IMG/VR virus record: IMGVR_UViG_3300016674_000106
DNA length: 64,000 nt
From: a virus
Direction: 5' to 3' (one strand)
A program made the position numbers and the translations under genes. Each line of letters starts with the position of its first letter. Position 1 is the stretch's first letter. Below the pieces are notes generated by a model, which was given only the letters and a program-made list of their open reading frames with translations, was not told the DNA's origin and ran no database searches. Shown piece after piece: positions 31,599 to 51,379 of this stretch.

Positions 31599-32471
31599 TT
31601 ACACAGCCATCGGTGCTTTAATAGTGTCGTGCGATTGATAATTATCAAGACGAATATCTGACATCTCAAAATCGGTAATAACGCTAACTTCGGGATTGAG
31701 ATATAGTGTCGGGTGCGGCATCGGTTCTCTCGATAGCTGCTCTTTAACTTGCTCGATGTGATTCTCGTAGATATGAGCATCACCGATCGCTAACACAAGC
31801 TCGTCAACTTCTAGGTTGCAGACTTGTGCAATCATATGAGTAAAGAGCGCATAGCTAGCAATATTAAACGGAATTCCAAGGAACATATCGGCGCTACGCT
31901 GGTACATTTGGCAGCTTAATTTTCCGTTATTTACATAAAACTGACTTAAAATATGGCACGGAGGAAGAGCCATTTGATCAAGTTCGCCTGGATTCCATGC
32001 AGAAATGATATGCCTGCGACCGTACGGATCTTCTTTAATACCGTTAATAAGTTCAATAAGTTGATCATGATTTTGTAAAACCACCTTATTTACTCTAACT
32101 AACGGCTTACGCCAGCGACGCCATTGAACTCCGTAAATGCGTCCTAAATCGCCAGGATGGCGCTGTAGTCGTTTATTGACCCAATAGTCGGCTTGTGCAT
32201 TCGCAGTCCAGATAGTTCCTTTTTCGGAGTATCTGTCCCCGTGTAACAGTTCTCGAAGCCGAAATTCATCACCACTACCTTCGATAAACCAGAGCAATTC
32301 GCTAACAACAGACTTCCACGCTAACTTCTTAGTTGTTACTGCCGGAAACCCTTCAGTAAGATCAAACCTCAGTTGAACCCCAAATTTAGAAATAGTACCA
32401 ACACCGGTACGATCGGGTCGCTTGTTGCCAGTTTCTAAAATATCTCTAAGTGCATCTAAATATTGTTTCAT
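31599..32471 (-). CDS. thyA: Thymidylate synthase
   Basis: DRTGVGT, LGRIYGVQWR, MALPPCH catalytic Cys, YQRSADMFLGIPFNIASY. Confidence 0.97.
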   Translation of the reverse strand: MKQYLDALRDILETGNKRPDRTGVGTISKFGVQLRFDLTEGFPAVTTKKLAWKSVVSELLWFIEGSGDEFRLRELLHGDRYSEKGTIWTANAQADYWVNKRLQRHPGDLGRIYGVQWRRWRKPLVRVNKVVLQNHDQLIELINGIKEDPYGRRHIISAWNPGELDQMALPPCHILSQFYVNNGKLSCQMYQRSADMFLGIPFNIASYALFTHMIAQVCNLEVDELVLAIGDAHIYENHIEQVKEQLSREPMPHPTLYLNPEVSVITDFEMSDIRLDNYQSHDTIKAPMAV

Positions 32472-34096: not shown

Positions 34097-35338
34097 TTAT
34101 TTATAATAGGCAGTCTGACCAAACGGAGAAACAATAGTGTCGTTGCCGTGAATAATAAACAACGTTTCGCAGTAGTTTTCGTCACCCCAACTACCGCACG
34201 GATACCCGTCGGTAAACATGATAAACCGCTTAGGTTCGATACCTTGGTCCTTCATAAAATCAAAGTTAGCATCAAAATCAGTGCCGCCGCCGCCCTTAAC
34301 CTTGTAATGCATGATCTCGTCGGCGTTATCACCGCTAAACTTAGCATAATTATACACCTGGGTGTCAAAGCACCAAAGGTCGAGTTTAAAGTCAACATAC
34401 TCGTCCATGATGCCCTTAACTTCACTCAGGAAGTCCATGGCTTGGCGATCAGAGATGCTACCGGACATGTCGATTGCAACAGACACATCGATAGTTTCTT
34501 CGTTCATCATACCAGGCAACACTGCACCGCAGTGTTGGCTCTTACGGTTCGGCCGACTAAAGCTAAAGTTGCTTTTCAAAATGCTCTGAATGTTCATTCG
34601 CAGCATCTGACGCCAATCCATCTTCGGCTCAGTGAACTCTTGAATGAGCCGTGCAACGCCAGCCGGAGTCTTGCCCGCGCCCGCGCTTTGCATTGCAGAA
34701 ACCATCGCTTCTTTGATTTCGTCGCGAATGACCTTTTTTTCTGCTTCGGTTAGCTTCGGACGACCATTACCCTGCTTACCTTCTTCGTCACCACCGCCGC
34801 CTGAACCCTCGTCGCCATCGTCGTCAAGGTGTTCATCGAGCAGTTGCCCAAGTTGGTCCAGATCGATTTTGATTGCCGTTTTTTCGAGCTCTTCGTAAAT
34901 CTGCTCAAAGCTCCAGTTACGGTATTTGTCGTCTTGAAAGATTTTAATCTTTTTCGGAACTTCGCCGATTTTCTCGTCTTTGAGAATCTGATTCACCGCG
35001 TAGTCGGCTGCAATATTAGCCAGTCGCTTGTCGCGATGACCTGCGCGTCCAATATGGTCAAAAACGTTGTGAAGAACTTCGTGACCGAAGCCAAATTCAA
35101 TTTCTTTTGCGCTCAAGTCGAACACAAAGTTTGCATTGTAATAGAAGTTCCGGCCGTCGGTTGCAAGTGTGTCGCACCAATCGCTTGCATCAATAATTTG
35201 CATACGAGTAGCCATATTGCCAAAGAACGGATGGCGCAGCAGCAGACCGACCCGCGCAGTGGTCAGCTTTTCAACAATTCGATTGTGGTCTGCGGCAGTA
35301 AGTTCTCGAGCAGGGGCGTTGGGTTTTTTGGTTGCCAT
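34097..35338 (-). CDS. Metallopeptidase-like + VWA domain protein (DUF2201-type)
   Basis: HEVLH (HExxH) motif, acidic Gly-rich linker, MIDAS DMSGS, GGGGTDF; start moved to the ATG at 35338, downstream of its promoter. Confidence 0.85.
   Translation of the reverse strand: MATKKPNAPARELTAADHNRIVEKLTTARVGLLLRHPFFGNMATRMQIIDASDWCDTLATDGRNFYYNANFVFDLSAKEIEFGFGHEVLHNVFDHIGRAGHRDKRLANIAADYAVNQILKDEKIGEVPKKIKIFQDDKYRNWSFEQIYEELEKTAIKIDLDQLGQLLDEHLDDDGDEGSGGGGDEEGKQGNGRPKLTEAEKKVIRDEIKEAMVSAMQSAGAGKTPAGVARLIQEFTEPKMDWRQMLRMNIQSILKSNFSFSRPNRKSQHCGAVLPGMMNEETIDVSVAIDMSGSISDRQAMDFLSEVKGIMDEYVDFKLDLWCFDTQVYNYAKFSGDNADEIMHYKVKGGGGTDFDANFDFMKDQGIEPKRFIMFTDGYPCGSWGDENYCETLFIIHGNDTIVSPFGQTAYYK
34098..34105 (-). 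promoter_or_regulatory. Late promoter TATAAATA embedded in the VWA gene's last codons
   Basis: TAT AAA TAA (Tyr-Lys-stop) spells TATAAATA, 13 nt before the next ATG. Confidence 0.45.
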
Positions 35339-35366
35339 GTGTAAATCTCGCTGTGTTAGTGTGTTA

Positions 35367-35395
35367 ATTATACACAAGATGTAGGTAACTGTCAA
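35367..35395 (-). promoter_or_regulatory. Consensus sigma70 promoter (VWA gene)
   Basis: TTGACA (35395-35390), 17 nt, TATAAT (35372-35367). Confidence 0.8.
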
Positions 35396-35409
35396 TGCAC
35401 ATTTAGTCA

Positions 35410-35438
35410 AAAGTAAAGGGCCGGAGGCCCTTTACTTT
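35410..35438 (-). terminator. Hairpin/terminator between MoxR and VWA genes
   Basis: Perfect 13-bp inverted repeat AAAGTAAAGGGCC-gga-GGCCCTTTACTTT. Confidence 0.7.
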
Positions 35439-35451
35439 GAAAAAGTACCGA

Positions 35452-36534
35452 TTAGCCTTGCATTGCAGCAATAATGAACTTACCGTAACGCTGATGGAAC
35501 TCATCAAAGTTCTTCAGCTTAGACGGATCAAACGGCAGGTTATAGGTGCTAATCGCCACCTTTGCGCCCATAACGGTCATTTCCGTTTGGAAGTTATCCA
35601 TCATAAAGCGGAAGAAGTAGTCGGCCATTTCGTCCCAGTTATCGACTTTCTTCTTTTTTGCTGCCTGGAGCTCGTAGCACAGACTGATAGTCAGCGAGTA
35701 CATTGCCGAAATTTCCTTGATGTTACACTTAGTAACCTTGCCGGACAGCACATCTTCGGGCAGAGGCATTTGCTGTGCAACCTTGCGGTGAGCCATGAAC
35801 TTAACCGCAAGCCCTTCGCCGACTGCGCCTGCGATTAGGTCGGTAAGAGTAGATTCGGGAAGATTGTCATCTTCCAGCAGCTCGCTAACGAAGGACCAGG
35901 AACGCGGAGTAGCAAACGCGCGGCTAGTGCTCTTCGGGTCGAAATCATACAGATCTTGCTTGGCAAAGCCCAGATAACCGACTACTTGCTCGTGCACCTG
36001 ATTCAGGGTGGCCCACTTGAGCCAGTCGTCAAAGTCAGTGCGGAGTTCCAGATGCAGGAAACGGTTAGCCAGCGGAGCCGGCATACGATACGTAACGCCC
36101 TTGTCGGTCTCGCGGTTGCCAGCGGCAACAATGGACACACCATCGGGCAGTCGATACGTGCCAACGCGACGATTCAGAATCAGCTGATATGCAGCAGCTT
36201 GGGTTGCCGGAGCCGCAGAGTTCAGTTCGTCGAGGAACAGGATTGCGGTACTATTCGGATCGCTCGGCAGCTCGCTCGGCGCAGCCCAGGTCATCGTGCC
36301 AAGATCGGAGTTGTAATAAGGAATACCTTTGATATCGGTAGGCTCCCAAAGGCTCAAGCGCACGTCGATGACCTCACGACCTTCTTCGCGACCAATCTGA
36401 TGCACAATGTCGGACTTGCCGATGCCCGGAGGGCCCCACATAAACACCGGACGCTTCACATCGATACACTTGCGGATACCGCGGATAGCTTCGTTAGGGG
36501 TAACGGTGCGGTTGGTGGAGATCTTTTCAGCCAT
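35452..36534 (-). CDS. MoxR-family AAA+ ATPase
   Basis: Walker A GPPGIGKS, Walker B ILFLDE, AAGNR, PLANRF, TPRSW. Confidence 0.9.
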   Translation of the reverse strand: MAEKISTNRTVTPNEAIRGIRKCIDVKRPVFMWGPPGIGKSDIVHQIGREEGREVIDVRLSLWEPTDIKGIPYYNSDLGTMTWAAPSELPSDPNSTAILFLDELNSAAPATQAAAYQLILNRRVGTYRLPDGVSIVAAGNRETDKGVTYRMPAPLANRFLHLELRTDFDDWLKWATLNQVHEQVVGYLGFAKQDLYDFDPKSTSRAFATPRSWSFVSELLEDDNLPESTLTDLIAGAVGEGLAVKFMAHRKVAQQMPLPEDVLSGKVTKCNIKEISAMYSLTISLCYELQAAKKKKVDNWDEMADYFFRFMMDNFQTEMTVMGAKVAISTYNLPFDPSKLKNFDEFHQRYGKFIIAAMQG

Positions 36535-40507: not shown

Positions 40508-40800
40508 TTAAATTGCCCCTTTTTCCAAACTTCTTCGAGAATTGTTATTGTAACTTGATCAGGATGATACGGAGAATAATCGATTCCGTCGACAATCTCT
40601 GGGTCCCAATCGAAGCTCCAGAGATTGTATTTGTTTCGGATATGCATTCCGAACCCTTGATGCAGAACCGTAAAGCTTATGTTGTTATATGGCATTCGGA
40701 AAAAATAGCTTTGTTCTTCTTCCGACATCTCTAAAATTTCCTTGTGCACTAAATCAACAATTTCGCTGAGCTTTTCGGTTATATGCATCACGTACCCCAT
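40501..40800 (-). CDS. Hypothetical protein
   Basis: 99-aa ORF overlapping the queE end and the next gene. Confidence 0.5.
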   Translation of the reverse strand: MGYVMHITEKLSEIVDLVHKEILEMSEEEQSYFFRMPYNNISFTVLHQGFGMHIRNKYNLWSFDWDPEIVDGIDYSPYHPDQVTITILEEVWKKGQFKC

Positions 40801-41639
40801 GCGTTCCTAAAAAGATCGACTTGAAGCCGCGGACTGTATCTAAGACCGTGTTGCATTGCTAACTTAGCTACGTTAGTGGTATTTAGATTATACACGTTAT
40901 CGGTCCCGCCAACTGGCATTAGATAAACGTGTCCGGTAAAGCCTGCCGATCGATATGCTGCAATTGCACATTCTGCGTCTGCAAAATCTTGATCAGTAGC
41001 GATTACAAACTTTAGATACGTATCGCCGACGGTTTGATAATCGCACACAACCTCGGGTTTGATCGCATGTTCCCATTTTTCGCCCGAACACGGTAGTTTC
41101 GCACTAACGCTAAACGTGATTTCGCCGCCTGCATGCGGATACCTTGCTGCGCGCCAACCTTTGAGATACTCTTTGAACTCGTCTGTTAGCGGTTGTGTGC
41201 CGTTAGTTTCGAACGTAATTTCTTTTAGTGCCTGCATTACAGGATGGTCGAGAAGTTCCGGGTATGCTCGTTGCCAGCCTAGCAGAGGCTCGCCACCGGT
41301 GATAATTAGGTGTTCATCCTTCCATTCTTTATTAGGAAGCAACATACAGATCTTTTCTGCAAGTTCGGTAGTACCAACCATCGGACTGAACTCTTTAAAC
41401 TTCGGGTGCCAAGATGCATACGAATCACAGCCAGTGGTTACAAGAGGAAGTTCCTCGTATGCTCGATACTGTTTCGGATCGATAAATTCTACTTCATTAG
41501 ATCGGCACCCTCGGTCCATACCAAACCCGGCACATGTAAAGTTACAACCGAACGTTCGAAGAAATACGCTCGGTACTCCGACATACTTGCCTTCGCCTTG
41601 GACGCTATAAAACAACTCTGCTACTTTAATTTTACTCAT
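40788..41639 (-). CDS. queE: 7-carboxy-7-deazaguanine synthase (radical SAM)
   Basis: ELFYSVQGEG...GVPSVFLR.FGCN..C, ITGGEPLL, FETNGT, VS.K, LKFV, YLMP, RLQV. Confidence 0.9.
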   Translation of the reverse strand: MSKIKVAELFYSVQGEGKYVGVPSVFLRTFGCNFTCAGFGMDRGCRSNEVEFIDPKQYRAYEELPLVTTGCDSYASWHPKFKEFSPMVGTTELAEKICMLLPNKEWKDEHLIITGGEPLLGWQRAYPELLDHPVMQALKEITFETNGTQPLTDEFKEYLKGWRAARYPHAGGEITFSVSAKLPCSGEKWEHAIKPEVVCDYQTVGDTYLKFVIATDQDFADAECAIAAYRSAGFTGHVYLMPVGGTDNVYNLNTTNVAKLAMQHGLRYSPRLQVDLFRNAWGT

Positions 41640-41664: not shown

Positions 41665-41949
41665 TTATACACGATTGCTGTGAAATAATGTAGACCACGA
41701 CTTCAATTTGTTAACCTTTTTTGCCTTTGCTTGTTCTAACTCGCCCACAGTAATTACATTTTGGTCAATTAGATAGTCTACAATTGCAAGAATGTCGCCG
41801 ATTTCTTCGTTCAGTAGTTCTCTATTTTTAATACCTTCTTTAAGATGTAATTCGTCAATACCAAATCGACGACATTTACTAACTATTTGAATAACTTCGG
41901 CGCATTCTTCTTGTAAAATACCAAGGGCTTCGAGAATTTTATCGTTCAT
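41665..41949 (-). CDS. MazG-like nucleotide pyrophosphohydrolase
   Basis: LQEECAEV...L.EEIGD acidic motif; start MNDKIL at 41949. Confidence 0.75.
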   Translation of the reverse strand: MNDKILEALGILQEECAEVIQIVSKCRRFGIDELHLKEGIKNRELLNEEIGDILAIVDYLIDQNVITVGELEQAKAKKVNKLKSWSTLFHSNRV

Positions 41950-42478
41950 AACGGCAGTGACTTTTTTGTGTTTCCCAAAGCTCAACGGCAGAAACAGTAG
42001 CAATATCTTTGAGCTGAGATTGGGCGTAGTCGCTAAGAAACGCGCAAATGTTCTCTGAAGTGGGAACAAAGTTGACTAATACAAAACTATCTAAATGAAG
42101 CTTTCGAAACTCGCTAACCGCATAGATAGATGTGGTAACAAGTTCTCCTAGGTTGGTAAAGTTGTTAACATTTTCAGGAAGATCTAAAGGGTCAATGCTT
42201 GTAATCAATTCAAAGTTAGGATCATTGATGTCAATCATAAATTTATGATCTAACGTAGTATCGATAAACTGCTTCATGAAGTTTAAATTTTTAAAATCAG
42301 TAACCATGCTCGATTGATCGAGTTTTTCAGATTTTAAAAATACTTTAAGTGTGTAGCTATGCCCGTGTAGGTGTTTACAGGCACACTCGGTACTAATGCT
42401 CAGATGGGTGTGCTTGAGCTCCTGCGCCCAAACACGATGCCCCATTTCCCAATTAAACGCTTTATCAATGATCCACAT
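41939..42478 (-). CDS. queD: 6-carboxytetrahydropterin synthase
   Basis: GHRV...CKHLHGHSY...DFK...LDHKF...PTSENI...VELWET; start at 42478 coupled to the upstream stop. Confidence 0.9.
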   Translation of the reverse strand: MWIIDKAFNWEMGHRVWAQELKHTHLSISTECACKHLHGHSYTLKVFLKSEKLDQSSMVTDFKNLNFMKQFIDTTLDHKFMIDINDPNFELITSIDPLDLPENVNNFTNLGELVTTSIYAVSEFRKLHLDSFVLVNFVPTSENICAFLSDYAQSQLKDIATVSAVELWETQKSHCRYER

Positions 42479-42975
42479 TATTTTGCCCACCAGTCTTCGT
42501 ACGGAAAGTCAACCCAGACGTCATCTTCGTTTTTGTTGATAGTCATTCCTACGAAATCCATATCTACGTTTGCTCGACTAGACTGATTATCTACCACAAT
42601 GGCAAATTTAACGTTTTCATTCCACACATGCTTCCATCGATCTCGATCCGGAAGGCAAGACCCTTGCCAGTCTTCGATGATCCAATTGATAGTTGCTCCG
42701 GAATCGTTAATGTCGTCGACAATTAAGATTTTCTTACCGTCAAATGCATCCTCGCTCATCCATGCATTGGTTTCAGTTCCGCCGCCGTCGCGCAGGCTAA
42801 CTTTTAATGTTTCTAACGGTTTTTGAAAATACTGGCTGATCATTACAGCAGGAACAAGACCGCCTCGAGTAATGCCTACGATATAATCCGGAATCCAGCC
42901 CGATACAGCAATCTGCTGGCACAGGCTATTGATCAAACCTTTAAATTCGGTCTGATTAATAACAAGTTTTTTCAT
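42478..42975 (-). CDS. Type I (Gpt-like) purine phosphoribosyltransferase
   Basis: IVGITRGGLVPA and PRPP loop ILIVDDINDSGAT; ends WVDFPYE. Confidence 0.88.
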   Translation of the reverse strand: MKKLVINQTEFKGLINSLCQQIAVSGWIPDYIVGITRGGLVPAVMISQYFQKPLETLKVSLRDGGGTETNAWMSEDAFDGKKILIVDDINDSGATINWIIEDWQGSCLPDRDRWKHVWNENVKFAIVVDNQSSRANVDMDFVGMTINKNEDDVWVDFPYEDWWAK

Positions 42976-42976
42976 G

Positions 42977-43663
42977 TTAGCCCTTTGCAGTGTTAACGAT
43001 ATTCATAAACTCTGCACGAACTGCTGGATCAGTTTTAAATGCACCGCCGAGTTTGGAAGTAACAGTGGAACTACCGGTATCTTCAACGCCGCGTGCTGCA
43101 ACGCAATAATGTTTAGCATTAATTACAACGGCAATGTTATCGGTTTCGAGGATATATTGCAGTGCGTAATAAATTTGTTCGGTTAGCCGTTCTTGGATCT
43201 GAGGCCGCTTGCTAAAGTATTCGACAATTCGATTGATCTTAGAAAGCCCGAGAACCTTCTCGTTAGGAATATACCCGACAGTAGCGAAGCCGTCAATGAC
43301 CACAAAGTGGTGTTCACAATTTGATTGCACATTAACGTTTCGCTCTACGACCATTTCGTCGTAGTTCATTTTATTTTCAACAGTTGTGCACTTAGGAAAC
43401 GCGTCGTAATCGAGGCCCCAAAAAATTTCATTCACAAACATTTTCGCAACACGCTTTGGAGTTTCGACTAGACTATCGTCTGTTAGATCGAGTCCGAGCA
43501 CCTGCATAATCTGTCGGAAATGATTTTCGATGATATCGATCCGTTCCTTGCGATCACCGTAGCTTACGTCATTATTGACCGGTGTTTCTACACCGCACTT
43601 TACTAAATGTTCGTGGATTTGTTGACCTAGAGCCGGATCGGTTTTAGTTTTGTTGTATGACAT
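42977..43663 (-). CDS. folE: GTP cyclohydrolase I
   Basis: TPKRVAKM, CEHHFV, GLSKINRIV, RPQIQERLT, HYC..ARG; start MSYNK at 43663 after AAGGA SD. Confidence 0.95.
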   Translation of the reverse strand: MSYNKTKTDPALGQQIHEHLVKCGVETPVNNDVSYGDRKERIDIIENHFRQIMQVLGLDLTDDSLVETPKRVAKMFVNEIFWGLDYDAFPKCTTVENKMNYDEMVVERNVNVQSNCEHHFVVIDGFATVGYIPNEKVLGLSKINRIVEYFSKRPQIQERLTEQIYYALQYILETDNIAVVINAKHYCVAARGVEDTGSSTVTSKLGGAFKTDPAVRAEFMNIVNTAKG

Positions 43664-43725
43664 TTGATATCCTTCCTTACGCGGATTAATTTTGTAGATT
43701 GTTGTGTCACCGTTGTGTGACAAGA

Positions 43726-44829
43726 TTATTTATATGCTGCGATTTGCGAGATCAAATTATCTGCGCTAAAAAATTTCGATGTTAGTAACTGTTCAACTGT
43801 AGATAAGTCAACATTGTTATATGATTTAATTATACTGCGAATTTTGTCTACAATCAAATCTTTATGCGATTGATATGCATTGTAGTTAATTGTCCATTCG
43901 CTAGGGTACTTAAATTCTTCTGGATACATCTCAGTATAACTTAGACGGTCGGGCACAAACGGAATAGCACCAGCTAACACCCCCTCGTAAGGAGAAATTC
44001 CTAAAGTTTCTTGCAGGTTGGCACTAAAAACCATTTTTGCCTTGCCTAAGATTTGATGGTATTCGGTCTTAGTTAGCCGAGACTCTTGACATACAACAAA
44101 CTGATATTCCGGAATAGACTTTGCTAGATCTTTAAAAATATCTAGTTGTTTTTCTGGAGCAATACGGTGCGGAAATACGATTAGGTCTTCCTTTGTCGAC
44201 TTGTATCGTCTAATTTCATCTTTAAGATACTCCATCGGCCAGCCGGTTTGAATTACTTTTCCAGTGCGTTCGGCATTGTAATGCTCTGAGGGTCCTTCGT
44301 GTCCGAACAGATTTTTGAAGAACATACTGGTATGAAACTCGGTTGCAAAGTAGTTTTTATCAAGCGCATAAAAGAAACTTTTTTCAGTATGTCTGACCCA
44401 CGGAGCGTCACCGACAATTCTACCTAAGAAATCTTGCGGATCGTAGCTACCTGCATGCCAGAGCCCGTGCAATACCCAGTTCGTTCCTAGCAAATCCTTC
44501 ATATACTTAACTTGTAGGATTGTCGGGTTCCAAGCATCTGTAAACAGAATATGATCGTTCGGTTTGACTAGCCGATTATTAAACTTTTCTAAAAAGTTAA
44601 TAAGCTGCGAGCTTTTCCAATTGTTGGTGTCGGAGAAATTCAAAAATGCACCAGGAGTCGGTGCTGTGTTCAATTGTACACCGCTAATGTCACAGACATT
44701 GAACTTATCGGACAGTGCTTCTTTTAAAAGCAAAGGAATATGCACTTCCCACTGACCGGTGTATCTAGTTTCGATCGGTTCTAGAGACATTACCCAGATT
44801 GTGGGCTTTGAGAAATCCATTTCTATCAT
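43726..44829 (-). CDS. GT-B (GT4-like) glycosyltransferase
   Basis: VFPHR.APEKQ and E-x7-E motif ETLGISPYE, then GAIP.VP....Y.E. Confidence 0.8.
   Translation of the reverse strand: MIEMDFSKPTIWVMSLEPIETRYTGQWEVHIPLLLKEALSDKFNVCDISGVQLNTAPTPGAFLNFSDTNNWKSSQLINFLEKFNNRLVKPNDHILFTDAWNPTILQVKYMKDLLGTNWVLHGLWHAGSYDPQDFLGRIVGDAPWVRHTEKSFFYALDKNYFATEFHTSMFFKNLFGHEGPSEHYNAERTGKVIQTGWPMEYLKDEIRRYKSTKEDLIVFPHRIAPEKQLDIFKDLAKSIPEYQFVVCQESRLTKTEYHQILGKAKMVFSANLQETLGISPYEGVLAGAIPFVPDRLSYTEMYPEEFKYPSEWTINYNAYQSHKDLIVDKIRSIIKSYNNVDLSTVEQLLTSKFFSADNLISQIAAYK
43727..43734 (-). promoter_or_regulatory. Late promoter TATAAATA upstream of folE
   Basis: Formed by the final Tyr-Lys-stop codons of the glycosyltransferase gene. 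Confidence 0.45.
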
Positions 44830-44846
44830 TATAGATCCTTTAATGT

Positions 44847-44875
44847 AAAAAGCCCGGGTTACCCGGGCTTTTTTT
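44847..44875 (-). terminator. Intrinsic terminator (bidirectional form)
   Basis: AAAAAGCCCGGG-TTA-CCCGGGCTTTTTTT. Confidence 0.8.
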
Positions 44876-45062
44876 AGGCAGTTGCGTTGCGCTTCTTAGA
44901 CCTTGCCCAATCTTTGTATGCCTTCGATCGGTATAGATCTGCTTGGTTAAAGTTGATCAAGTTCAACCGACAGTGATCGTGCCACGCTTCAAGATCGTCA
45001 AAGATCTTGTTAACTTCGGGCTTCATCGTGAGGGTTTTTTGAATGTATCCAGGCAGTGCCAT
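44874..45062 (-). CDS. Small basic hypothetical protein with its own promoter
   Basis: 62-aa ORF, AAAGGA SD, promoter upstream and terminator downstream. Confidence 0.55.
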   Translation of the reverse strand: MALPGYIQKTLTMKPEVNKIFDDLEAWHDHCRLNLINFNQADLYRSKAYKDWARSKKRNATA

Positions 45063-45106: not shown

Positions 45107-45136
45107 ATATTACACGAGTTTGCTATTGTATGTCAA
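45107..45136 (-). promoter_or_regulatory. sigma70-type promoter
   Basis: TTGACA (45136-45131), 18 nt, TAATAT (45112-45107). Confidence 0.55.
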
Positions 45137-45513
45137 CTAATTTTTTTGGTATATTCGATCACACACCCGCATTCTCCGTCCTCGCTCACTTCCAGTGACA
45201 TATTTCTGTTCGGGTATCGCTTAACGACTTCGGCAGCAACGTCGTCTGCTAGCATTTCAACACTCTTGTGGTTGATGTCGATAACATTTGTTTCGAATAA
45301 AGACTCGCAAAAATTCAAAAACTGATGAAATTCAAGTTCACGATCGTCATGAAACACTTCGATCTTTACTTTAAATTTAAACAAATGTCGATGTCGGTTA
45401 GCAAGGTAGCTAACATCTTGTAAGGACGGGTCGGCCGCTGCCTGCGGGTAATAGTGGAAACCGGCCCGTTGAAACGTTACCCAGATCCAGCGAGAGGTAG
45501 TATGCGTATTCAT
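45133..45513 (-). CDS. Second QueD-like T-fold protein
   Basis: F...GFH.YP...LANRHRHLF.FKV...D.E.EF...S.E.LA...VSEDGE.G; HRH in place of the QueD HGH. Confidence 0.65.
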   Translation of the reverse strand: MNTHTTSRWIWVTFQRAGFHYYPQAAADPSLQDVSYLANRHRHLFKFKVKIEVFHDDRELEFHQFLNFCESLFETNVIDINHKSVEMLADDVAAEVVKRYPNRNMSLEVSEDGECGCVIEYTKKIS

Positions 45514-46040
45514 TTAATGATAGTATCCTTTCCGTACTTCTTCCAGTCTGTAAAAACTTTTCGATCCATTAAATCGTGTACATTGTGCACCCAAACTCCA
45601 GGATTAGTCCTATTAAAATCAATGTCATCGATCTTAATACACGCATTGTAGTTTAAATGCTTTATGTAAGGTATTTTAACACTAATTTGTGGAATAAACA
45701 AGTTGCTTTCTAACAAATGAGATTCTTGAAGTCCTTCTACCTCGGAAAGATCTAAGTCCAACGTGCACCAATATTTTTGGTCGATGCACGGTGTAATCAT
45801 TTTTTCCCACATAGACCAAGTGTCGTAGTCATCTGCTCCGTGCGTTTTAAAGCTCTGATTTGCACCGAAATAAATGTGTTCTACATTCCAGTCCTTGGCT
45901 AACTGTAAAATAGTTTCAGCATCGTGAACACCAGATACGAAAAGCGTCTTCATACCATATGCAGGCGTGTGCTCGATTTCGTCTCCTACGAAATACTGAA
46001 CATCTGCGTCAGATGTTCCTGTGTCGTAATCTCGTTTCAT
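45510..46040 (-). CDS. Hypothetical protein inside the deazaguanine island
   Basis: 176 aa, coupled at both ends (ATGA overlaps) to the TGT-like and T-fold genes. Confidence 0.65.
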   Translation of the reverse strand: MKRDYDTGTSDADVQYFVGDEIEHTPAYGMKTLFVSGVHDAETILQLAKDWNVEHIYFGANQSFKTHGADDYDTWSMWEKMITPCIDQKYWCTLDLDLSEVEGLQESHLLESNLFIPQISVKIPYIKHLNYNACIKIDDIDFNRTNPGVWVHNVHDLMDRKVFTDWKKYGKDTIIK

Positions 46041-47683
46041 TCTTTGACTCCTTCTTCAAGTGACCGCAGTGCATCGTCATCTGGGTCTTCGATATTAACT
46101 TCGTCAACTGACGTAACATCTTCGATATCAAACAGCGATGTAAACGTGTTTTGTGCGTTTCCGCCTCTAAGGCGAGCACCATCAAGACTACGTAAAAACG
46201 GCGATGCTTGCTCGATCATTGCAAATGCATCTTCTTTAGTGGTAGTCTCAAACAGCTCTTCCACGAACCGATCAAAATACAGAATATTACGAGGAACCCA
46301 ATCGCTATATTCGTCGCTGCCGGCTTGTTTAGCATTTAGCTTTCTCCAGTGACGCCAATCAGGCCGACCGTTAGGCTTTGCACGCTCAATGTCGACTAAG
46401 TTGTTTGCTCGTTGAACGGCCACGATGTGACAATAAACATTGTGCGCCATCATTAGTGCATATGCAAAACTATCCCAGCTTGTTCTTCCGATTTTGTTGA
46501 TCTTGTTCATCTTAGGAACAACCGTGTAATGCTCAGGATTTTCCGGATCAAACTTAATCTGTTTACCCGAGTCATCGACACCTAGTTCCGTATCAGTCTT
46601 TCGAACACCGGTATCATAGTAGCAAATGTCCCCTAGGGTCAATCGTCGGCCGATTTCGCTTTCGAATGGGAATGGGATGTCGCTTCCGGACAAGAGTTTG
46701 TTGTCTGGGGCTTTGTCCATAATAACGCTCCAACGCTTTGAAGTGTGTTGCGCGTTGGTGTAGACGAGGCCGTGCGCAGTTGCGATAAACGGTGAGGCGC
46801 AATCAAAAGATATGGTAAAGTTTTCATTAATGTGCTTTCTAATTTGACGTTGAATACTTGTTAAGTAACAGCTCCAGTCGAGTTGTGCAGTTCCTAGGAA
46901 GTGCATCCAATCTTTGCCTTTAAGTAGCCCATCTTCACGAAGAGTGATTAGTCGCTTTAGTGTAACGTCCATCTTACACATATTTGCGCCTCCCATTGCC
47001 CACCCTTCTGCGGCCTTATCGCCCCACACTGCAGGGTCGCTAAAGTCTTTTACCCCTTGATACCATTTTTCTGCAGTATCCCAGTCGCTACCTTGAAGAA
47101 CATTTAAGAACTTAGTTTGACCGAGACGATTTTTTAGAAAATATTCGTTGTTAAATCGAGTCTTGTCTAAGCAATCATCAAACGTTTTTAGACCAGTTTT
47201 TGGACTATGAATGTGATCGCACGCCCATGTAGGAACGTCGAGCATCATGGACCAATCTGCGGTTAATTCGAGCCATTCTAAAATCTGCTGACGAGTTTTG
47301 TTAGCTTCCGGACCTTCAAAGTTGAGCCAATCAAACTTTAGAACTCCTTTACCGATCTGATATCCACCAGAGTCGCCGAGGATCATTGTGTTTTCTCGAT
47401 CGCGCTGTTGAATCATCGATTCTTGGGTTAAGCTCTTGTTTAAGTCTAATTGTGCATGCCCTGCAGAATATAGACCGTACTTGTATGTAAAGTATCCTTC
47501 CTCGGCGTTTAAGAAATTCATGCCTTCGATGCCTCTATCAAAATCTGCAGGAATCCGATCTAAAGGCACAAATTCTTCTAATCGTTGTTTCGAAATATAA
47601 GTCCCGTAAAACGAACTAATGGCCGGAAGATACACAGCATAGTCTCGTTGTCCTGGGGTCAAGTTAACTGGTGGTTTTTTCAT
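46037..47683 (-). CDS. TGT-fold (DpdA-like) 7-deazaguanine transglycosylase
   Basis: TGT motifs in order: ILGDSGGYQ, MLDVP, VLQG, GWAMGG, HFLG, SFDCASP, HN. Confidence 0.8.
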   Translation of the reverse strand: MKKPPVNLTPGQRDYAVYLPAISSFYGTYISKQRLEEFVPLDRIPADFDRGIEGMNFLNAEEGYFTYKYGLYSAGHAQLDLNKSLTQESMIQQRDRENTMILGDSGGYQIGKGVLKFDWLNFEGPEANKTRQQILEWLELTADWSMMLDVPTWACDHIHSPKTGLKTFDDCLDKTRFNNEYFLKNRLGQTKFLNVLQGSDWDTAEKWYQGVKDFSDPAVWGDKAAEGWAMGGANMCKMDVTLKRLITLREDGLLKGKDWMHFLGTAQLDWSCYLTSIQRQIRKHINENFTISFDCASPFIATAHGLVYTNAQHTSKRWSVIMDKAPDNKLLSGSDIPFPFESEIGRRLTLGDICYYDTGVRKTDTELGVDDSGKQIKFDPENPEHYTVVPKMNKINKIGRTSWDSFAYALMMAHNVYCHIVAVQRANNLVDIERAKPNGRPDWRHWRKLNAKQAGSDEYSDWVPRNILYFDRFVEELFETTTKEDAFAMIEQASPFLRSLDGARLRGGNAQNTFTSLFDIEDVTSVDEVNIEDPDDDALRSLEEGVKE

Positions 47684-47915
47684 TGTTTGCTAGTATTATT
47701 GTTATTTTTAGGTGCTCTTTTGCTTTATTGAAGTTGTCTAATGCTGCCTGTACGGCAGCATTAGAATTCGCTAAGTTACGCATGTTAGCTTCTTCATGCA
47801 TTTTTTGTCTTGCCCATGACAAGATTGCAGATACCTCCGGCGTTAATCCGATACCGATCGCGTTGTCAGACGAATACACAACTAATTCAGGAGACATGCT
47901 GTTGCATGTGATCAT
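47664..47915 (-). CDS. Small hypothetical protein
   Basis: 83-aa ORF coupled to the clamp and TGT-like genes. Confidence 0.5.
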   Translation of the reverse strand: MITCNSMSPELVVYSSDNAIGIGLTPEVSAILSWARQKMHEEANMRNLANSNAAVQAALDNFNKAKEHLKITIILANNEKTTS

Positions 47916-48649
47916 TATGCTTGTGCCGGAATAATATATTTGTAAACAGCAAGGCCGCTATCGAGCGTGATCATAAGCGCACCGCTGTCAGAAATGCTAA
48001 GCTTAGAGTTATTGCCATCTGCAATCTTTAGAATGCTTAGAATTGCGCTCACAGGCCACGAGAACCGCTTAGATAAGTTACCGGTTACATTAGCAGCGAA
48101 TACAAACTCACCACCATGAGATGCTTGATCCCCGAAAATAAACTTCAGTGCGTTGTCTTCGGTCTTAGCGATAAAGGTAGTGTGTTCGGTGTTTGCACCT
48201 GCTTGAAATTGGAATCGTTGAATTGCTTGAATGCTAGGTTCAACTTCGACGTCCCAGTTAACTCCGCGGAACTTTACGGTCTTTAACTTATCATTGATGA
48301 TTTCGGTATTCATAAACCGATAGTCATTTTTAAAATCGCCGTCTGCATTTTCGAAGTGAATGCCAGTGGGCACTTCTTCGCCATTACGACTTGCGGTAAT
48401 GAGTTCAATCTTAGCGCCCGCTCTGTACTCCGAGCCGTCAACAAGATACTTCAACTTGTTAAGTTGCGGCATGCCGAACACGCCTTTAAGTTCTGGGTAC
48501 GGGGTAGCGGTTTCGGCGTACATAATCACCGTTCTGTCATCGGCCATAGAGTCGATTTTGGTAGACTCATCAGTTCCAGTAACTTTTACAATGTTTAAAA
48601 AGCCTAGGTTATGGGTGTGATAAACGATGTCTTGTAAGATTTCTTTCAT
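47915..48649 (-). CDS. Probable sliding clamp (gp45/PCNA-like)
   Basis: 244 aa, directly downstream of the polymerase, beta-rich two-domain pattern, C-terminal Y.YIIPA. Confidence 0.6.
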   Translation of the reverse strand: MKEILQDIVYHTHNLGFLNIVKVTGTDESTKIDSMADDRTVIMYAETATPYPELKGVFGMPQLNKLKYLVDGSEYRAGAKIELITASRNGEEVPTGIHFENADGDFKNDYRFMNTEIINDKLKTVKFRGVNWDVEVEPSIQAIQRFQFQAGANTEHTTFIAKTEDNALKFIFGDQASHGGEFVFAANVTGNLSKRFSWPVSAILSILKIADGNNSKLSISDSGALMITLDSGLAVYKYIIPAQA

Positions 48650-48709: not shown

Positions 48710-51379
48710 TTAATCAAAACTGAAAAGATTGTTGAACGTGTTGTCTTCGGTTGTAGACATCAGATCCCAGTCAAGGACTCCGATTAGGTTCTCAAGTTTA
48801 TTGTTGATAATTACGGACTCCATTTCGCTGTGGTCGAACGGTAATTCTTGAAACCACTTAGGCAATCGAAGTTCGTCGACGGGGTATGCAACTGACGTAA
48901 ACCCGATAGGGTTTTCTTTTAGCTTGCATACGATTACTTTCATGCCGTCAACAATCGGTTGGCTATACTTGTCCCCGTTCATGCGTCGCAGCGTGTTCCA
49001 ATTAATGCTTGCGCGCACATGTCCTGGCATAGTCGTTTTGCCATTCTTTTCTTCTTTAGCTTGGTACTCAGTAATGTTATTGGCCCGCTTCGGAGAACCT
49101 TTTTCCCAACCCGGCCTGGCCTTGAATAAAGTTCGAAATTCTTTAATCATTTCGAGGACTTCGGTCTCGCCGGCACCGTGTAGGACTTTATTTAGAACAT
49201 CGCTTAAGAAGTTCTGCATATATTCAGGCGTATCGCTGCGCTTTAGATCGAGCCCCATTGCCTTAATCTTTCCGTCTTTACCATTAACATCTTGACGCTT
49301 CCCGTCTTTGTCGTAATAAAGTACAGCATACCGTTTTTTGGTAATAAACAAGCCTTTAGAAGCTACGATTTCTCGCCCTGCTTTGATAACGGATCCGCGA
49401 CTCTTTGGACAATGAAATTTGTCTAACATCATCTGAGGGAAAGTGCTATTCACTTCTTCAGAGATGTTATCGTACAGATGGATTACAGTATCTTTATCCC
49501 ATTGAATAAGCCCTTTACTGATGTCATTCTTTAAGATAGGATACGCACTGAAATATGCAGAGTCAGTGTCACCGTAAATAATACTTTTACCCACATGATC
49601 GTACTCTCCGGTTATAAGTTCATTAACCTTTGCGGCCATATGCTTAGCAACTTGCCGGCCAGTGAGAGTTGTTGATTGTCCGATTCTGTTATCAAAGAAT
49701 CTGCATCCCGCGTTAAGAATTGCACCGTATAGCGAGTTTAGGTTAATCTTTTTAACTAGCTGTCGTTTGTCCCAGTACTCTTCTTCGATTGCATTTCCGG
49801 CTTCGATTGCTGCCTTTAACTTAGCCTGCATTTCTTTACGCTCTGAATACCATCGCTTTAGCAGACCAGGTATAATTCCTTCTTTTTCGTATGTAAAGAT
49901 TGTACCGTTGGCACTAATGGTCCATGGCTGGTTACTCTCGAATAACATTTCATAAATCTGAGCGCCCGACATTACGTCAGTTTGACCATTCTCCCAGTCA
50001 ATGATGATATCGTGAGTGCGATCCTTTGCCATTACAAACTCGTATTCGTTAGAACCGAATTTGCCTTCCCATGCTCCTGCAAAACTTGACCCTTTGGCCA
50101 TTTTTGCTTCGATTTCGGCCTTTGTGTATTCGGGTCTGAGCTGCCCGACAATGGTTTCTGGCCCCATGTTCAACGCGCGAATCGCAGAAGGATACAGAGA
50201 GTTAATGTCCATTGATCCGATCCAGTCGTGCAGCCCTTTCTTTGGATATGCAACATATGCACCCGCGGCCTGCGTATCTCCTTGTTCGCCTTTTCGTTGA
50301 CGACTTGGAACAATTAAACCGTGACTATGAGCTTCGTTAATAATAGCCTGCTCTGTAACGGCAACAGCTCCCATAATAGTCGGAAGAAGAACAGTGTTCT
50401 CGTGGGCAAGTGTGTTTGCAAGATCTAAGAACTTCAGCTTCTTATCTAGTCGATCCAACAGTGCTGTATCTTGCCGGTTGTATTCGATGAACTTTTTAAA
50501 ATCTCGATTGTAAAGCTGATCCAGCGTGCCTTCGTATTGAGTCTTTCTTTCACCGAGCTCGTAAAATGCAATAGCATCTAACGAATAACTATGCCGTTCT
50601 TCGTATGTGTATTTTCGATACAGTTCTAAGCTGTCCATGTGCACACGACCAACAAAGTCGTATGTAATTGCCGTTTTTCCGTACTTTTCGTACTCTCTCT
50701 TTTTCGGAAGCTGATTCCACAGGCAAAACCGCCGAGTATCATCTTTACTTAGAGTTTTTGTAACGCGATTAACAGTATACGGGATATCGAAACCTTCGCT
50801 GTTCCAGCCGCTTAATACATCAGCATCTTCGATAAGAGTTAAAAATGTATCTAACATCTCATACTCTGTTTCGAACAGGATAGTGTTAGGGAACTCTTTA
50901 ATTTCTTCTTGGGCCTGCTCCATTGTGAGCGTTTTTGGCGGAACTGCTAGACACACTAGAGTATCTAGCCATTGCATATGCACCGCAATCGAAGTAATCG
51001 GCATAAACGCATCCTCCGGCGATGCGTATCCGCGCTCTGGGTCAAAGTCAACTTCGATATCGAAAAACGCCACATTTAGTTTAGGCGCTTCTTTTCCAAG
51101 GTAACACTCTTCGAGCGCTCGGAACACCGGATTAATATCGCTTTCGAAGAGTTTTTTGCCAGAATGAATTCGTTGCTCTTTTGCGAACTCTTTCCAGCTT
51201 CGGCAACTAACCTTTGTAAGATTGTCGCCAAAAATGCTTTTATATTTTCCTTTCGGATCCGGATAATAGAACATATACCTTGCAGGTATATCTTGGTATA
51301 CGCGTTTTTGATCGGTGTTTCTTTCTACAACCCGTATAATATCGTCATCTCTTAACCAAATTGCATCTACGTAACTCAT
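48710..51379 (-). CDS. Family B DNA polymerase (gp43-like)
   Basis: Exonuclease FFDIEVD, GWNS..FDIPY, YN..D; polymerase DINSLYPS, K...NSLYG, YGDTDS, KKRY. Confidence 0.97.
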   Translation of the reverse strand: MSYVDAIWLRDDDIIRVVERNTDQKRVYQDIPARYMFYYPDPKGKYKSIFGDNLTKVSCRSWKEFAKEQRIHSGKKLFESDINPVFRALEECYLGKEAPKLNVAFFDIEVDFDPERGYASPEDAFMPITSIAVHMQWLDTLVCLAVPPKTLTMEQAQEEIKEFPNTILFETEYEMLDTFLTLIEDADVLSGWNSEGFDIPYTVNRVTKTLSKDDTRRFCLWNQLPKKREYEKYGKTAITYDFVGRVHMDSLELYRKYTYEERHSYSLDAIAFYELGERKTQYEGTLDQLYNRDFKKFIEYNRQDTALLDRLDKKLKFLDLANTLAHENTVLLPTIMGAVAVTEQAIINEAHSHGLIVPSRQRKGEQGDTQAAGAYVAYPKKGLHDWIGSMDINSLYPSAIRALNMGPETIVGQLRPEYTKAEIEAKMAKGSSFAGAWEGKFGSNEYEFVMAKDRTHDIIIDWENGQTDVMSGAQIYEMLFESNQPWTISANGTIFTYEKEGIIPGLLKRWYSERKEMQAKLKAAIEAGNAIEEEYWDKRQLVKKINLNSLYGAILNAGCRFFDNRIGQSTTLTGRQVAKHMAAKVNELITGEYDHVGKSIIYGDTDSAYFSAYPILKNDISKGLIQWDKDTVIHLYDNISEEVNSTFPQMMLDKFHCPKSRGSVIKAGREIVASKGLFITKKRYAVLYYDKDGKRQDVNGKDGKIKAMGLDLKRSDTPEYMQNFLSDVLNKVLHGAGETEVLEMIKEFRTLFKARPGWEKGSPKRANNITEYQAKEEKNGKTTMPGHVRASINWNTLRRMNGDKYSQPIVDGMKVIVCKLKENPIGFTSVAYPVDELRLPKWFQELPFDHSEMESVIINNKLENLIGVLDWDLMSTTEDNTFNNLFSFD

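Follow-up and report, generated by a model that had tools for sequence, protein, structure and literature searches.

A conserved GT4-like glycosyltransferase as a candidate tailoring enzyme of a QueC-less 7-deazaguanine DNA modification system in phages

The DNA stretch analyzed here (the window) comprises 64,000 nt of the IMG/VR virus record IMGVR_UViG_3300016674_000106 and includes a gene for a GT4-like glycosyltransferase (GT; protein P0001) embedded in a cluster of 7-deazaguanine genes. The initial annotation, made from the DNA letters alone, had proposed a modified guanine as the acceptor of this enzyme. A functional link of the GT with the deazaguanine pathway, and not with 5-hydroxymethylcytosine (5hmC), is now well supported by sequence comparisons across phage genomes. 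About even credence is given to a more specific reading, in which the GT is a tailoring enzyme of the QueC-less DpdA3/DpdL pathway belonging to a large phage-specific family, and the glycosylated deazapurine ends up in DNA. The novelty lies in an undescribed conserved glycosylation module within a known DNA-modification pathway.

Gene cluster around the glycosyltransferase

The cluster is tightly packed and co-directional, and is located just downstream of a family-B DNA polymerase gene (48710-51379). It includes the following genes:

40788..41639, (-): QueE, a radical-SAM synthase of 7-carboxy-7-deazaguanine (CDG); phrog_2076, E 2e-50, weak match to Pfam Radical_SAM
41665..42069, (-): MazG-like NTP pyrophosphohydrolase; phrog_4856, E 1.8e-23, weak match to Pfam MazG (19.9 vs 22 bits)
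41939..42490, (-): QueD, 6-carboxytetrahydropterin (CPH4) synthase; PF01242, E 1.2e-25, phrog_2389
42478..42975, (-): purine-type phosphoribosyltransferase (PRTase); PF00156, E 1e-16
42977..43723, (-): FolE, GTP cyclohydrolase I; PF01227, E 1.2e-63, phrog_2197
43726..44829, (-): GT4-like GT-B glycosyltransferase P0001, 367 aa; ATG-initiated open reading frame (ORF), assigned by structure model, profile and motifs
44874..45062, (-): 62-aa ORF, no family match
45133..45513, (-): DpdL, 126 aa, a QueD-like T-fold paralogue and proposed CDG decarboxylase; phrog_17812, E 5e-34
45510..46040, (-): conserved 176-aa protein, with 4-nt start and stop overlaps with the neighbour genes
46037..47683, (-): DpdA3-like DNA guanine transglycosylase, 548 aa, with a tRNA-guanine transglycosylase (TGT) fold according to Foldseek and a long C-terminal tail
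47915-48649: conserved 244-aa protein between the polymerase and TGT-fold genes, whose homolog in Sinorhizobium phage Phosso is annotated as a sliding clamp

The placement of the GT between the T-fold/TGT genes and folE, as given in the initial annotation, held on inspection: the TGT-fold gene and DpdL lie upstream, and folE starts 2 nt after the GT. At the nucleotide level, sequenced phages matched the cluster in the folE segment only (~65% identity). The typical QueC motif SGGxDS was absent from all frames of the 64-kb window, and the scan of ORFs turned up no QueC. The cluster is a QueC-less DpdA3/DpdL deazaguanine system plus the GT, a PRTase, a MazG-like gene and the 176-aa protein.

The DpdL protein carries the sequence LANRHRHLF, fitting the LxxxHRHxF signature, and is 63% identical to DpdL of Acidovorax phage ACP17 (E 2e-57). 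In DpdL this signature replaces the CxxxHGH of QueD, and the enzyme was proposed to be a CDG decarboxylase, its predicted substrate being the free base (PMC10516641). The 548-aa DpdA3-like protein had no Pfam or PDB sequence match, and a profile search against the PDB sequences was also empty; the top 50 Foldseek PDB matches of its AlphaFold model (pLDDT 82.5) were all tRNA-guanine transglycosylases (E ~1e-6). It is 44% identical to gp316 of phage PA5oct and only weakly similar (24%, E 0.002) to the 424-aa protein beside dpdL in ACP17, the latter match covering the conserved DSGG motif.

For the remaining genes, the comparison included 80 IMG/VR sister loci, which represent a single phage clade with the GT 50-56% identical, save for the window's own fragment. 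The 176-aa protein, present in 66 of these loci, had no match in Pfam (including searches with 25 homologs), NCBIfam, PHROG, Atlas or in a profile search against PDB. Among the sequenced phages its homologs occurred in GT-positive ones only: in the PA5oct group (48% identity, ~27 kb away from the cluster) and in ACP17 (30%, beside dpdA). It is a candidate second accessory enzyme of the GT/deazaguanine pathway. A role as the maker of an acceptor handle was also considered for this protein and was dropped, since Atlas, the profile search against PDB and Pfam analysis of 25 homologs gave no support for it. The PRTase was found in 64 of the sister loci and also in PA5oct and cyanophage BUCT-ZZ01, its best NCBIfam matches being xanthine and hypoxanthine-guanine PRTases, all beneath the cut-off. 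The 62-aa ORF occupied the same position in 46 of the sister loci. The true start of the MazG-like gene probably lies downstream of its overlap with queD.

Two side observations concern the que part of the cluster. The presence of the PRTase and the MazG-like gene inside the que operon (41665-42975, (-)) hints at a pre-replicative nucleotide-pool route alongside the transglycosylase. Furthermore, 36 of the 80 sister loci encoded a HIT-domain protein of ~125 aa within the group of que genes that follows the GT (e.g., L008:15515-15904); this gene was not seen in the cluster of the window, where the MazG-like gene occupies that stretch.

Sequence, fold and conserved motifs of P0001

The P0001 gene is preceded by the ribosome-binding site AAAGGA located 7 nt 5' of the ATG. 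Sequence searches with P0001 retrieved nothing at normal thresholds from Pfam, PHROGs, NCBIfam or the PDB sequences: a Pfam scan at E 0.01 gave no match, and the score against Glycos_transf_1 was 15.1 bits, i.e., below the gathering threshold of 26.4. Neither of the T4 alpha- and beta-glucosyltransferases (AGT and BGT) matched it in sequence. An alignment of 64 relatives with 27-55% identity was used as the basis for structure prediction; 47 of these relatives matched Glycos_transf_1, mostly weakly (best E 5.5e-9), and three matched 'GT4-conflict'. With P0001 beneath the Pfam cut-off and its relatives mostly weak, it is therefore considered as a divergent sister family of GT4 and not as a curated member, and the label "GT4-like" rests on the fold and the motifs.

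The AlphaFold model of P0001 (pLDDT 96.1, pTM 0.93) consisted of two Rossmann-like domains separated by a cleft, which is the GT-B fold, and had neither a membrane-association segment nor a signal peptide. All top structural matches in PDB, Swiss-Prot and BFVD were GT-B glycosyltransferases. Foldseek against PDB returned BshA, MshA, GlgM, SenB and glycogen/starch synthases, with a probability of 1.00 to GT4/GT5 enzymes. Exhaustive VIA-align comparison gave Z 20-26 with many GT4/GT5 structures over ~300 residues, including sucrose-phosphate synthase (26.0), BshA (24.6), LmbT (22.6), GlgM (22.1) and PimA (21.1); WaaG, PglA, GtfA and TarM were also matched. The DNA-bound T4 AGT (1y6f) ranked 39th (Z 17.6, rmsd 4.5), beneath generic GT4 enzymes, and the glycosyltransferase of phage HY126 scored Z 18.1.

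The E-x7-E motif ETLGISPYE, already pointed out in the initial annotation, was located at residues 274-282. Within the 64 relatives E282 was invariant and E274 was conserved in at least 90%, with the most distant homologs having Asp at one of the two positions. The family profile aligned E274-x7-E282 with the same motif of 8xsg (E 1.6e-5), 5i45 and 2f9f. Another conserved segment, FPHRIAPEKQ, contains R222 and K227, each conserved in at least 90% of the relatives and aligned by the profile with 'GRLDHNKN' of 6eji and 'RRKREE' of 8xsg; by homology, these two residues would represent the Arg/Lys pair binding the donor diphosphate. In the N-terminal domain a set of acidic and aromatic residues (E17, Y23, W27, F62, D98, W100, H125, D130, D133 and E149) was conserved in the family, and these would suit a guanine-like ligand, either in DNA or free. 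Judging from the model, the profile alignments and the motifs, P0001 is a genuine glycosyltransferase of the GT4 type, which is probably active, nucleotide-sugar-dependent and retaining.

Family size and linkage to the deazaguanine genes

The GT family is large, with more than 8000 clusters at 90% identity as a lower bound and 1169 clusters at 50% identity with E <1e-3. Its members were often found on contigs of 200-480 kb, and the Atlas clusters were 95-100% viral. The record nearest to the window was a 14.6-kb fragment with the same cluster. Across the 80 IMG/VR loci the gene order PolB-clamp-DpdA3L-p176-DpdL-GT-PRT/FolE-QueE was kept, and in 75 of them DpdL preceded the GT at a distance of under 1.7 kb. 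The sole long exception was locus L047, in which DpdL is elsewhere on the same contig and the GT stands beside the genes for ClpX, ClpS and Hsp20.

The same association was present in sequenced phages outside this clade. The GT directly adjoined DpdL in Sinorhizobium phage Phosso (46% identity), the PA5oct group (44%), Acidovorax phage ACP17 (39%) and cyanophage BUCT-ZZ01 (22%), and in Xanthomonas phage X1 (24%) the two were separated by a single gene, encoding TGT. In all five, FolE and QueE were found near the GT. Among metagenomic contigs with a ~30%-identical GT, all five that were long enough to judge had DpdL within 1.3 kb of it. QueE was present in every GT-positive genome checked, including the PhiXhv-12 group, in which the GT is placed beside GlmS and a deacetylase. 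In every lineage examined, GT homologs sat with folE, queE, dpdL and dpdA, and the comparison called for in the initial annotation was thus decided in favour of its proposal.

The association was one-way: DpdL without the GT was encoded by RHph_I1_18, Ahp1, Bakedbeans and D479, and the Cellulophaga phages, the group in which dDG has been measured (PMC10516641), gave no tblastn match to the GT at E 1e-3. Such a distribution would be anticipated for a tailoring step superimposed on a core pathway. In one of the GT-less phages, Vibrio phage Bakedbeans, gp176 (L110:5212-6363) has a DpdL-like domain (HPHRHMF) fused to an N-terminal region of ~260 aa. In two distant GT/DpdL/FolE clusters the neighbouring DNA polymerase (L104:5382-7958 and L113:11734-14216) belongs to family A and has a uracil-DNA glycosylase (UDG) domain fused or coupled to it, a polymerase type that was linked to T-modified phage genomes in a 2026 paper (PMC13697223).

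Sugar-related genes beside the GT homologs

Evidence for a genuine involvement of sugar chemistry came from several relatives, in which differing sets of genes for glycan editing or nucleotide sugars occupied an equivalent position beside the GT. A UDP-Glc/GDP-Man dehydrogenase gene directly followed the GT at L008:10224-10997; alcohol dehydrogenase-like and GFO/IDH/MocA oxidoreductases were encoded in the GT cluster at L042:7004-8763; a NodB-type deacetylase and a methyltransferase stood beside the GT at L114:10303-11891; and in PhiXhv-12 (L005:4744-6872) the GT homolog was flanked by GlmS and an LmbE-type deacetylase. This variation of the sugar-tailoring genes among sister and distant clusters suggests that the transferred sugar differs between clades. 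The cluster of the window has no sugar-tailoring gene and, thus, represents a minimal version, for which the donor would be a nucleotide sugar of the host.

Comparison with known systems

The closest described system is that of Cellulophaga phage phiST, in which a DpdL/DpdA3-type pathway completely replaces dG by 2'-deoxy-7-deazaguanosine (dDG) (Cui, Hutinet et al., NAR 2023, PMC10516641). The window shares with it FolE, QueD and QueE, the absence of QueC, a DpdL with the LxxxHRHxF signature, a divergent DpdA with the TGT fold and the location next to a DNA polymerase gene. It differs from phiST in having the conserved GT, the PRTase, the MazG-like gene, the 176-aa protein and a larger DpdA-like protein (548 aa). 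The 2023 survey of phage deazaguanine systems did not mention a glycosyltransferase (PMC10516641).

The GT-B fold, the phage origin, the location in a DNA-metabolism region and the presence of varying sugar-nucleotide genes in sister phages are features that P0001 shares with the T4 alpha- and beta-glucosyltransferases and with the other phage enzymes that glycosylate 5hmC or 5-hydroxycytosine (5hoC) in DNA. In contrast to them, it is acidic, its presumed acceptor is a purine analogue, and the 64-kb window contains no source of a hydroxylated pyrimidine; in structure it is nearer to small-molecule GT4 enzymes than to AGT (Z 22-26 vs 17.6).

GT4 enzymes from outside phages were also compared. 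HuiG from the huimycin pathway of Kutzneria albida (PMC7439116), likened here by its description, is likewise of the GT4 type (PF13439; bioRxiv 10.64898/2026.04.15.718813), is encoded beside homologs of FolE, QueD and QueE and has been assigned the transfer of N-acetylglucosamine (GlcNAc) onto the 2-amino group of a 7-deazapurine. In contrast to the setting of P0001, however, its acceptor is a free O-methylated derivative of preQ0 and its pathway is a QueC-containing, secondary-metabolite one in an actinomycete. BshA and MshA, the retaining GT4 GlcNAc transferases of bacillithiol and mycothiol synthesis, were among the best structural matches of P0001 (Z 24.6 with BshA), and the BshA/BshB logic of GlcNAc transfer followed by deacetylation is echoed beside members of the P0001 family in PhiXhv-12 (GlmS and LmbE-type) and L114 (NodB-type). 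They differ from P0001 in sequence (~10% identity) and in using malate or inositol phosphate as acceptors, and the window itself is without a deacetylase. QTMAN/GTDC1, the alpha-mannosyltransferase of tRNA queuosine, is also of the GT4 type and glycosylates a 7-deazaguanine derivative that forms part of a nucleic acid. Among the structural matches in Swiss-Prot it ranked 11th, and its TM was 0.72-0.76. Its acceptor, however, is the cyclopentenediol of queuosine, which the pathway of the window cannot make. A specific kinship with QTMAN was rejected: QTMAN_N (PF12038) matched neither P0001 nor any of the 64 relatives at E 1, and other GT4 enzymes are just as similar to P0001.

Proposed pathway and nature of the acceptor

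In the reading given here, FolE, QueD and QueE would make CDG from GTP, and DpdL would convert it to 7-deazaguanine. The base would then enter DNA by the action of the TGT-fold DpdA3-like enzyme. Alternatively, the PRTase might feed it into the nucleotide pool, from which MazG would remove dGTP. With a UDP- or GDP-sugar as donor, the GT would glycosylate the deazaguanine moiety with a hexose or an N-acetylhexosamine, most likely after incorporation into DNA, and the resulting glycosylated deazapurine in the virion DNA might protect it against host nucleases. Of the elements of this reading, the fold, the conservation of the donor-site motifs, the place of the gene in the cluster and the co-occurrence with deazaguanine genes were demonstrated, whereas the function within the pathway, the sugar donor, the acceptor atom and transfer onto DNA are inferences. 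It is possible, albeit somewhat on the doubtful side, that the virion DNA of the phage represented by the window and of its relatives (the PA5oct group, ACP17, Phosso, X1, BUCT-ZZ01 and thousands of uncultured jumbo/T4-like phages) carries glycosylated 7-deazaguanine, with the sugar bound perhaps as an N2-glycoside exposed in the minor groove or as a C7/C8 C-glycoside and being a hexose, hexuronate or hexosamine depending on the clade.

Several points weigh against the reading as a whole. The P0001 family is mostly acidic (median pI ~5.6), and the closest structures are small-molecule GT4 enzymes and not DNA glycosyltransferases. If DpdL is a decarboxylase, the expected product, 7-deazaguanine, offers neither a hydroxyl nor a carboxyl group as a handle at C7, and no recognisable oxygenase is encoded within the 64-kb window, which leaves the acceptor atom unexplained. 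Finally, since the 80 IMG/VR loci come from one clade, their synteny counts as few independent events.

Three candidates may be considered for the acceptor position: the N2 amine, by analogy with huimycin and dapiramicin; the electron-rich C7 or C8, by C-glycosylation; and the carboxyl/ester of CDG, should DpdL of these phages be something other than a decarboxylase. The CDG carboxyl had been named as an example in the initial annotation. Of its proposal that the acceptor may be the modified guanine, the tie to the deazaguanine pathway was upheld by the co-location of homologs and the absence of ThyA-family genes from ACP17 and X1, and neither a base in DNA as the acceptor nor the CDG carboxyl gained support. 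The GT is almost always beside DpdL, which, acting as proposed, would strip that very carboxyl.

Alternative explanations

The most resilient alternative holds that the GT acts before the DNA stage, in a HuiG-like manner, on a free 7-deazapurine base, a nucleotide or a pterin intermediate, and that its product is either a substrate of the DpdA3-like enzyme or the PRTase or a soluble inhibitor or decoy outside DNA. We consider this unlikely, but, because the family is acidic and best matches small-molecule GT4 enzymes, transfer to a free base or nucleotide remains a live rival. The matches in question are soluble enzymes: sucrose-phosphate synthase, BshA, LmbT, GlgM, SenB and the pteridine glucosyltransferase 5zer. 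The GT is, moreover, tightly placed beside DpdL, a predicted free-base enzyme (PMC10516641); the PRTase and the MazG-like gene in the cluster point to chemistry at the base/nucleotide level; and HuiG, a PF13439 glycosyltransferase, was assigned to deazapurine N2 glycosylation (PMC7439116; bioRxiv 10.64898/2026.04.15.718813). On the other hand, a glycosylated base would be bulky for a TGT-type pocket, and the genes grouped with the GT encode a DNA transglycosylase and replication proteins, not export or secondary-metabolite functions. The variation of sugar-tailoring genes between clades resembles DNA-glycan diversification (10.1101/2023.12.21.572611), and the structural rank is not decisive for the acceptor, T4 AGT itself being a GT-B enzyme with Z 17.6 to P0001.

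A second alternative, judged improbable, places the target outside nucleic acids, for example among the glycans or lipids of the host envelope (with superinfection exclusion as the effect), the proteins of phage or host or the components of a defence system. The location in the cluster would then reflect nothing but a shared early/middle timing. GT4 enzymes do mostly act on lipids, glycans and proteins (PimA, WaaG, PglA, GtfA and TarM being among the matches of P0001), the three 'GT4-conflict' relatives belong to this side of the argument, and at L047 the GT stands apart from DpdL next to the ClpX, ClpS and Hsp20 genes. Against such a target, seven or more widely differing phage lineages kept the GT next to DpdL although the genes around them were heavily rearranged, deazaguanine genes were present in every GT-positive genome checked, and the P0001 model lacked a membrane-association segment and a signal peptide.

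In the weakest alternative, the GT works in the manner of the T4 enzymes and glycosylates DNA at a hydroxylated pyrimidine (5hmC, 5-hydroxymethyluracil (5hmU) or 5hoC) for which the genes lie elsewhere in the genome. The known phage DNA glycosyltransferases use such bases, produced by thymidylate-synthase homologs or by pairs of a methyltransferase (MT) and TET (PMC13326640; 10.1101/2023.12.21.572611), the homologs making 5hoC/5hmC are widespread in large phages (PMC13326640), the GT-B fold is common to P0001, T4 AGT (Z 17.6) and the HY126 enzyme (Z 18.1), and the window covers only 64 kb of the phage genome. The only ThyA-family gene of the window (31599-32471), however, is canonical, as had been noted earlier together with the lack of a 5hmC source: ThyA scored 364 bits vs the equivalog cut-off of 327 and has retained PFNIASY, which specifies dUMP, and the next gene encodes dihydrofolate reductase (DHFR). 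The complete GT-positive genomes of ACP17 and X1 had no ThyA-family gene at all. Tet/JBP had no match in five GT-positive genomes, but the controls of this search were silent as well, which gives the result little weight. With ThyA canonical in the window and missing from ACP17 and X1, a 5hmC, 5hmU or 5hoC acceptor is unlikely, and we regard this explanation as very improbable.

Implications

To our knowledge, all glycosylated DNA bases known so far are pyrimidines (glucosyl- and arabinosyl-hmC, base J and glycosyl-5hoC), and all known deazaguanines of DNA bear small substituents at position 7. Full-text literature searches, in which few subscription journals were covered, turned up no paper describing glycosylated deazaguanine as a component of DNA. 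If true, the proposed product would be the first sugar-bearing purine in DNA, and the GT as a conserved member of the DpdA3/DpdL pathway would unite DNA glycosylation with deazaguanine chemistry.

Two earlier observations might be explained in part by such an enzyme. Expressed in E. coli on their own, the dpdL and dpdA genes of ACP17 yielded no dDG, and a need for further enzymes was offered as a possibility by the authors (PMC10516641); the GT could help to explain this lack of product. The DNA of PA5oct resists restriction enzymes with G-containing sites and is sensed by END nucleases, its chemistry being unsolved in that work (PMC12191111); here the GT could help to explain the modification of G. 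The GT family is very abundant in environmental jumbo phages (the more than 8000 clusters at 90% identity mentioned above) and so the modification, if real, would be common. It would then matter for sequencing bias, for the evasion of restriction and CRISPR and as a source of new DNA-modifying enzymes. The question is open to testing in cultured GT-positive phages.

Other features of the window

One putative regulatory element was recognized ahead of the GT:

44847..44873, (-): perfect 12-bp GC-rich hairpin, AAAAAGCCCGGG-UAA-CCCGGGCUUUUU, with a U5 tail, directly after the stop of the 62-aa ORF

The hairpin lies 17 nt ahead of the GT ribosome-binding site and separates the four upstream genes from the GT. 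Its minimum free energy was -21.1 kcal/mol (z -4.06), and none of 200 shuffled sequences folded equally well. It may serve as a partial terminator or as an mRNA-stability element. A scan of the cluster for promoter and terminator consensus sequences, which missed this hairpin, found sites no more commonly than in shuffled sequence.

A MoxR-VWA pair is also encoded in this phage genome, on the minus strand. Its first gene (35452-36534) specifies a MoxR-type AAA ATPase, and the next one (34097-35410) a DUF2201 putative metallopeptidase that has a VWA-like domain.

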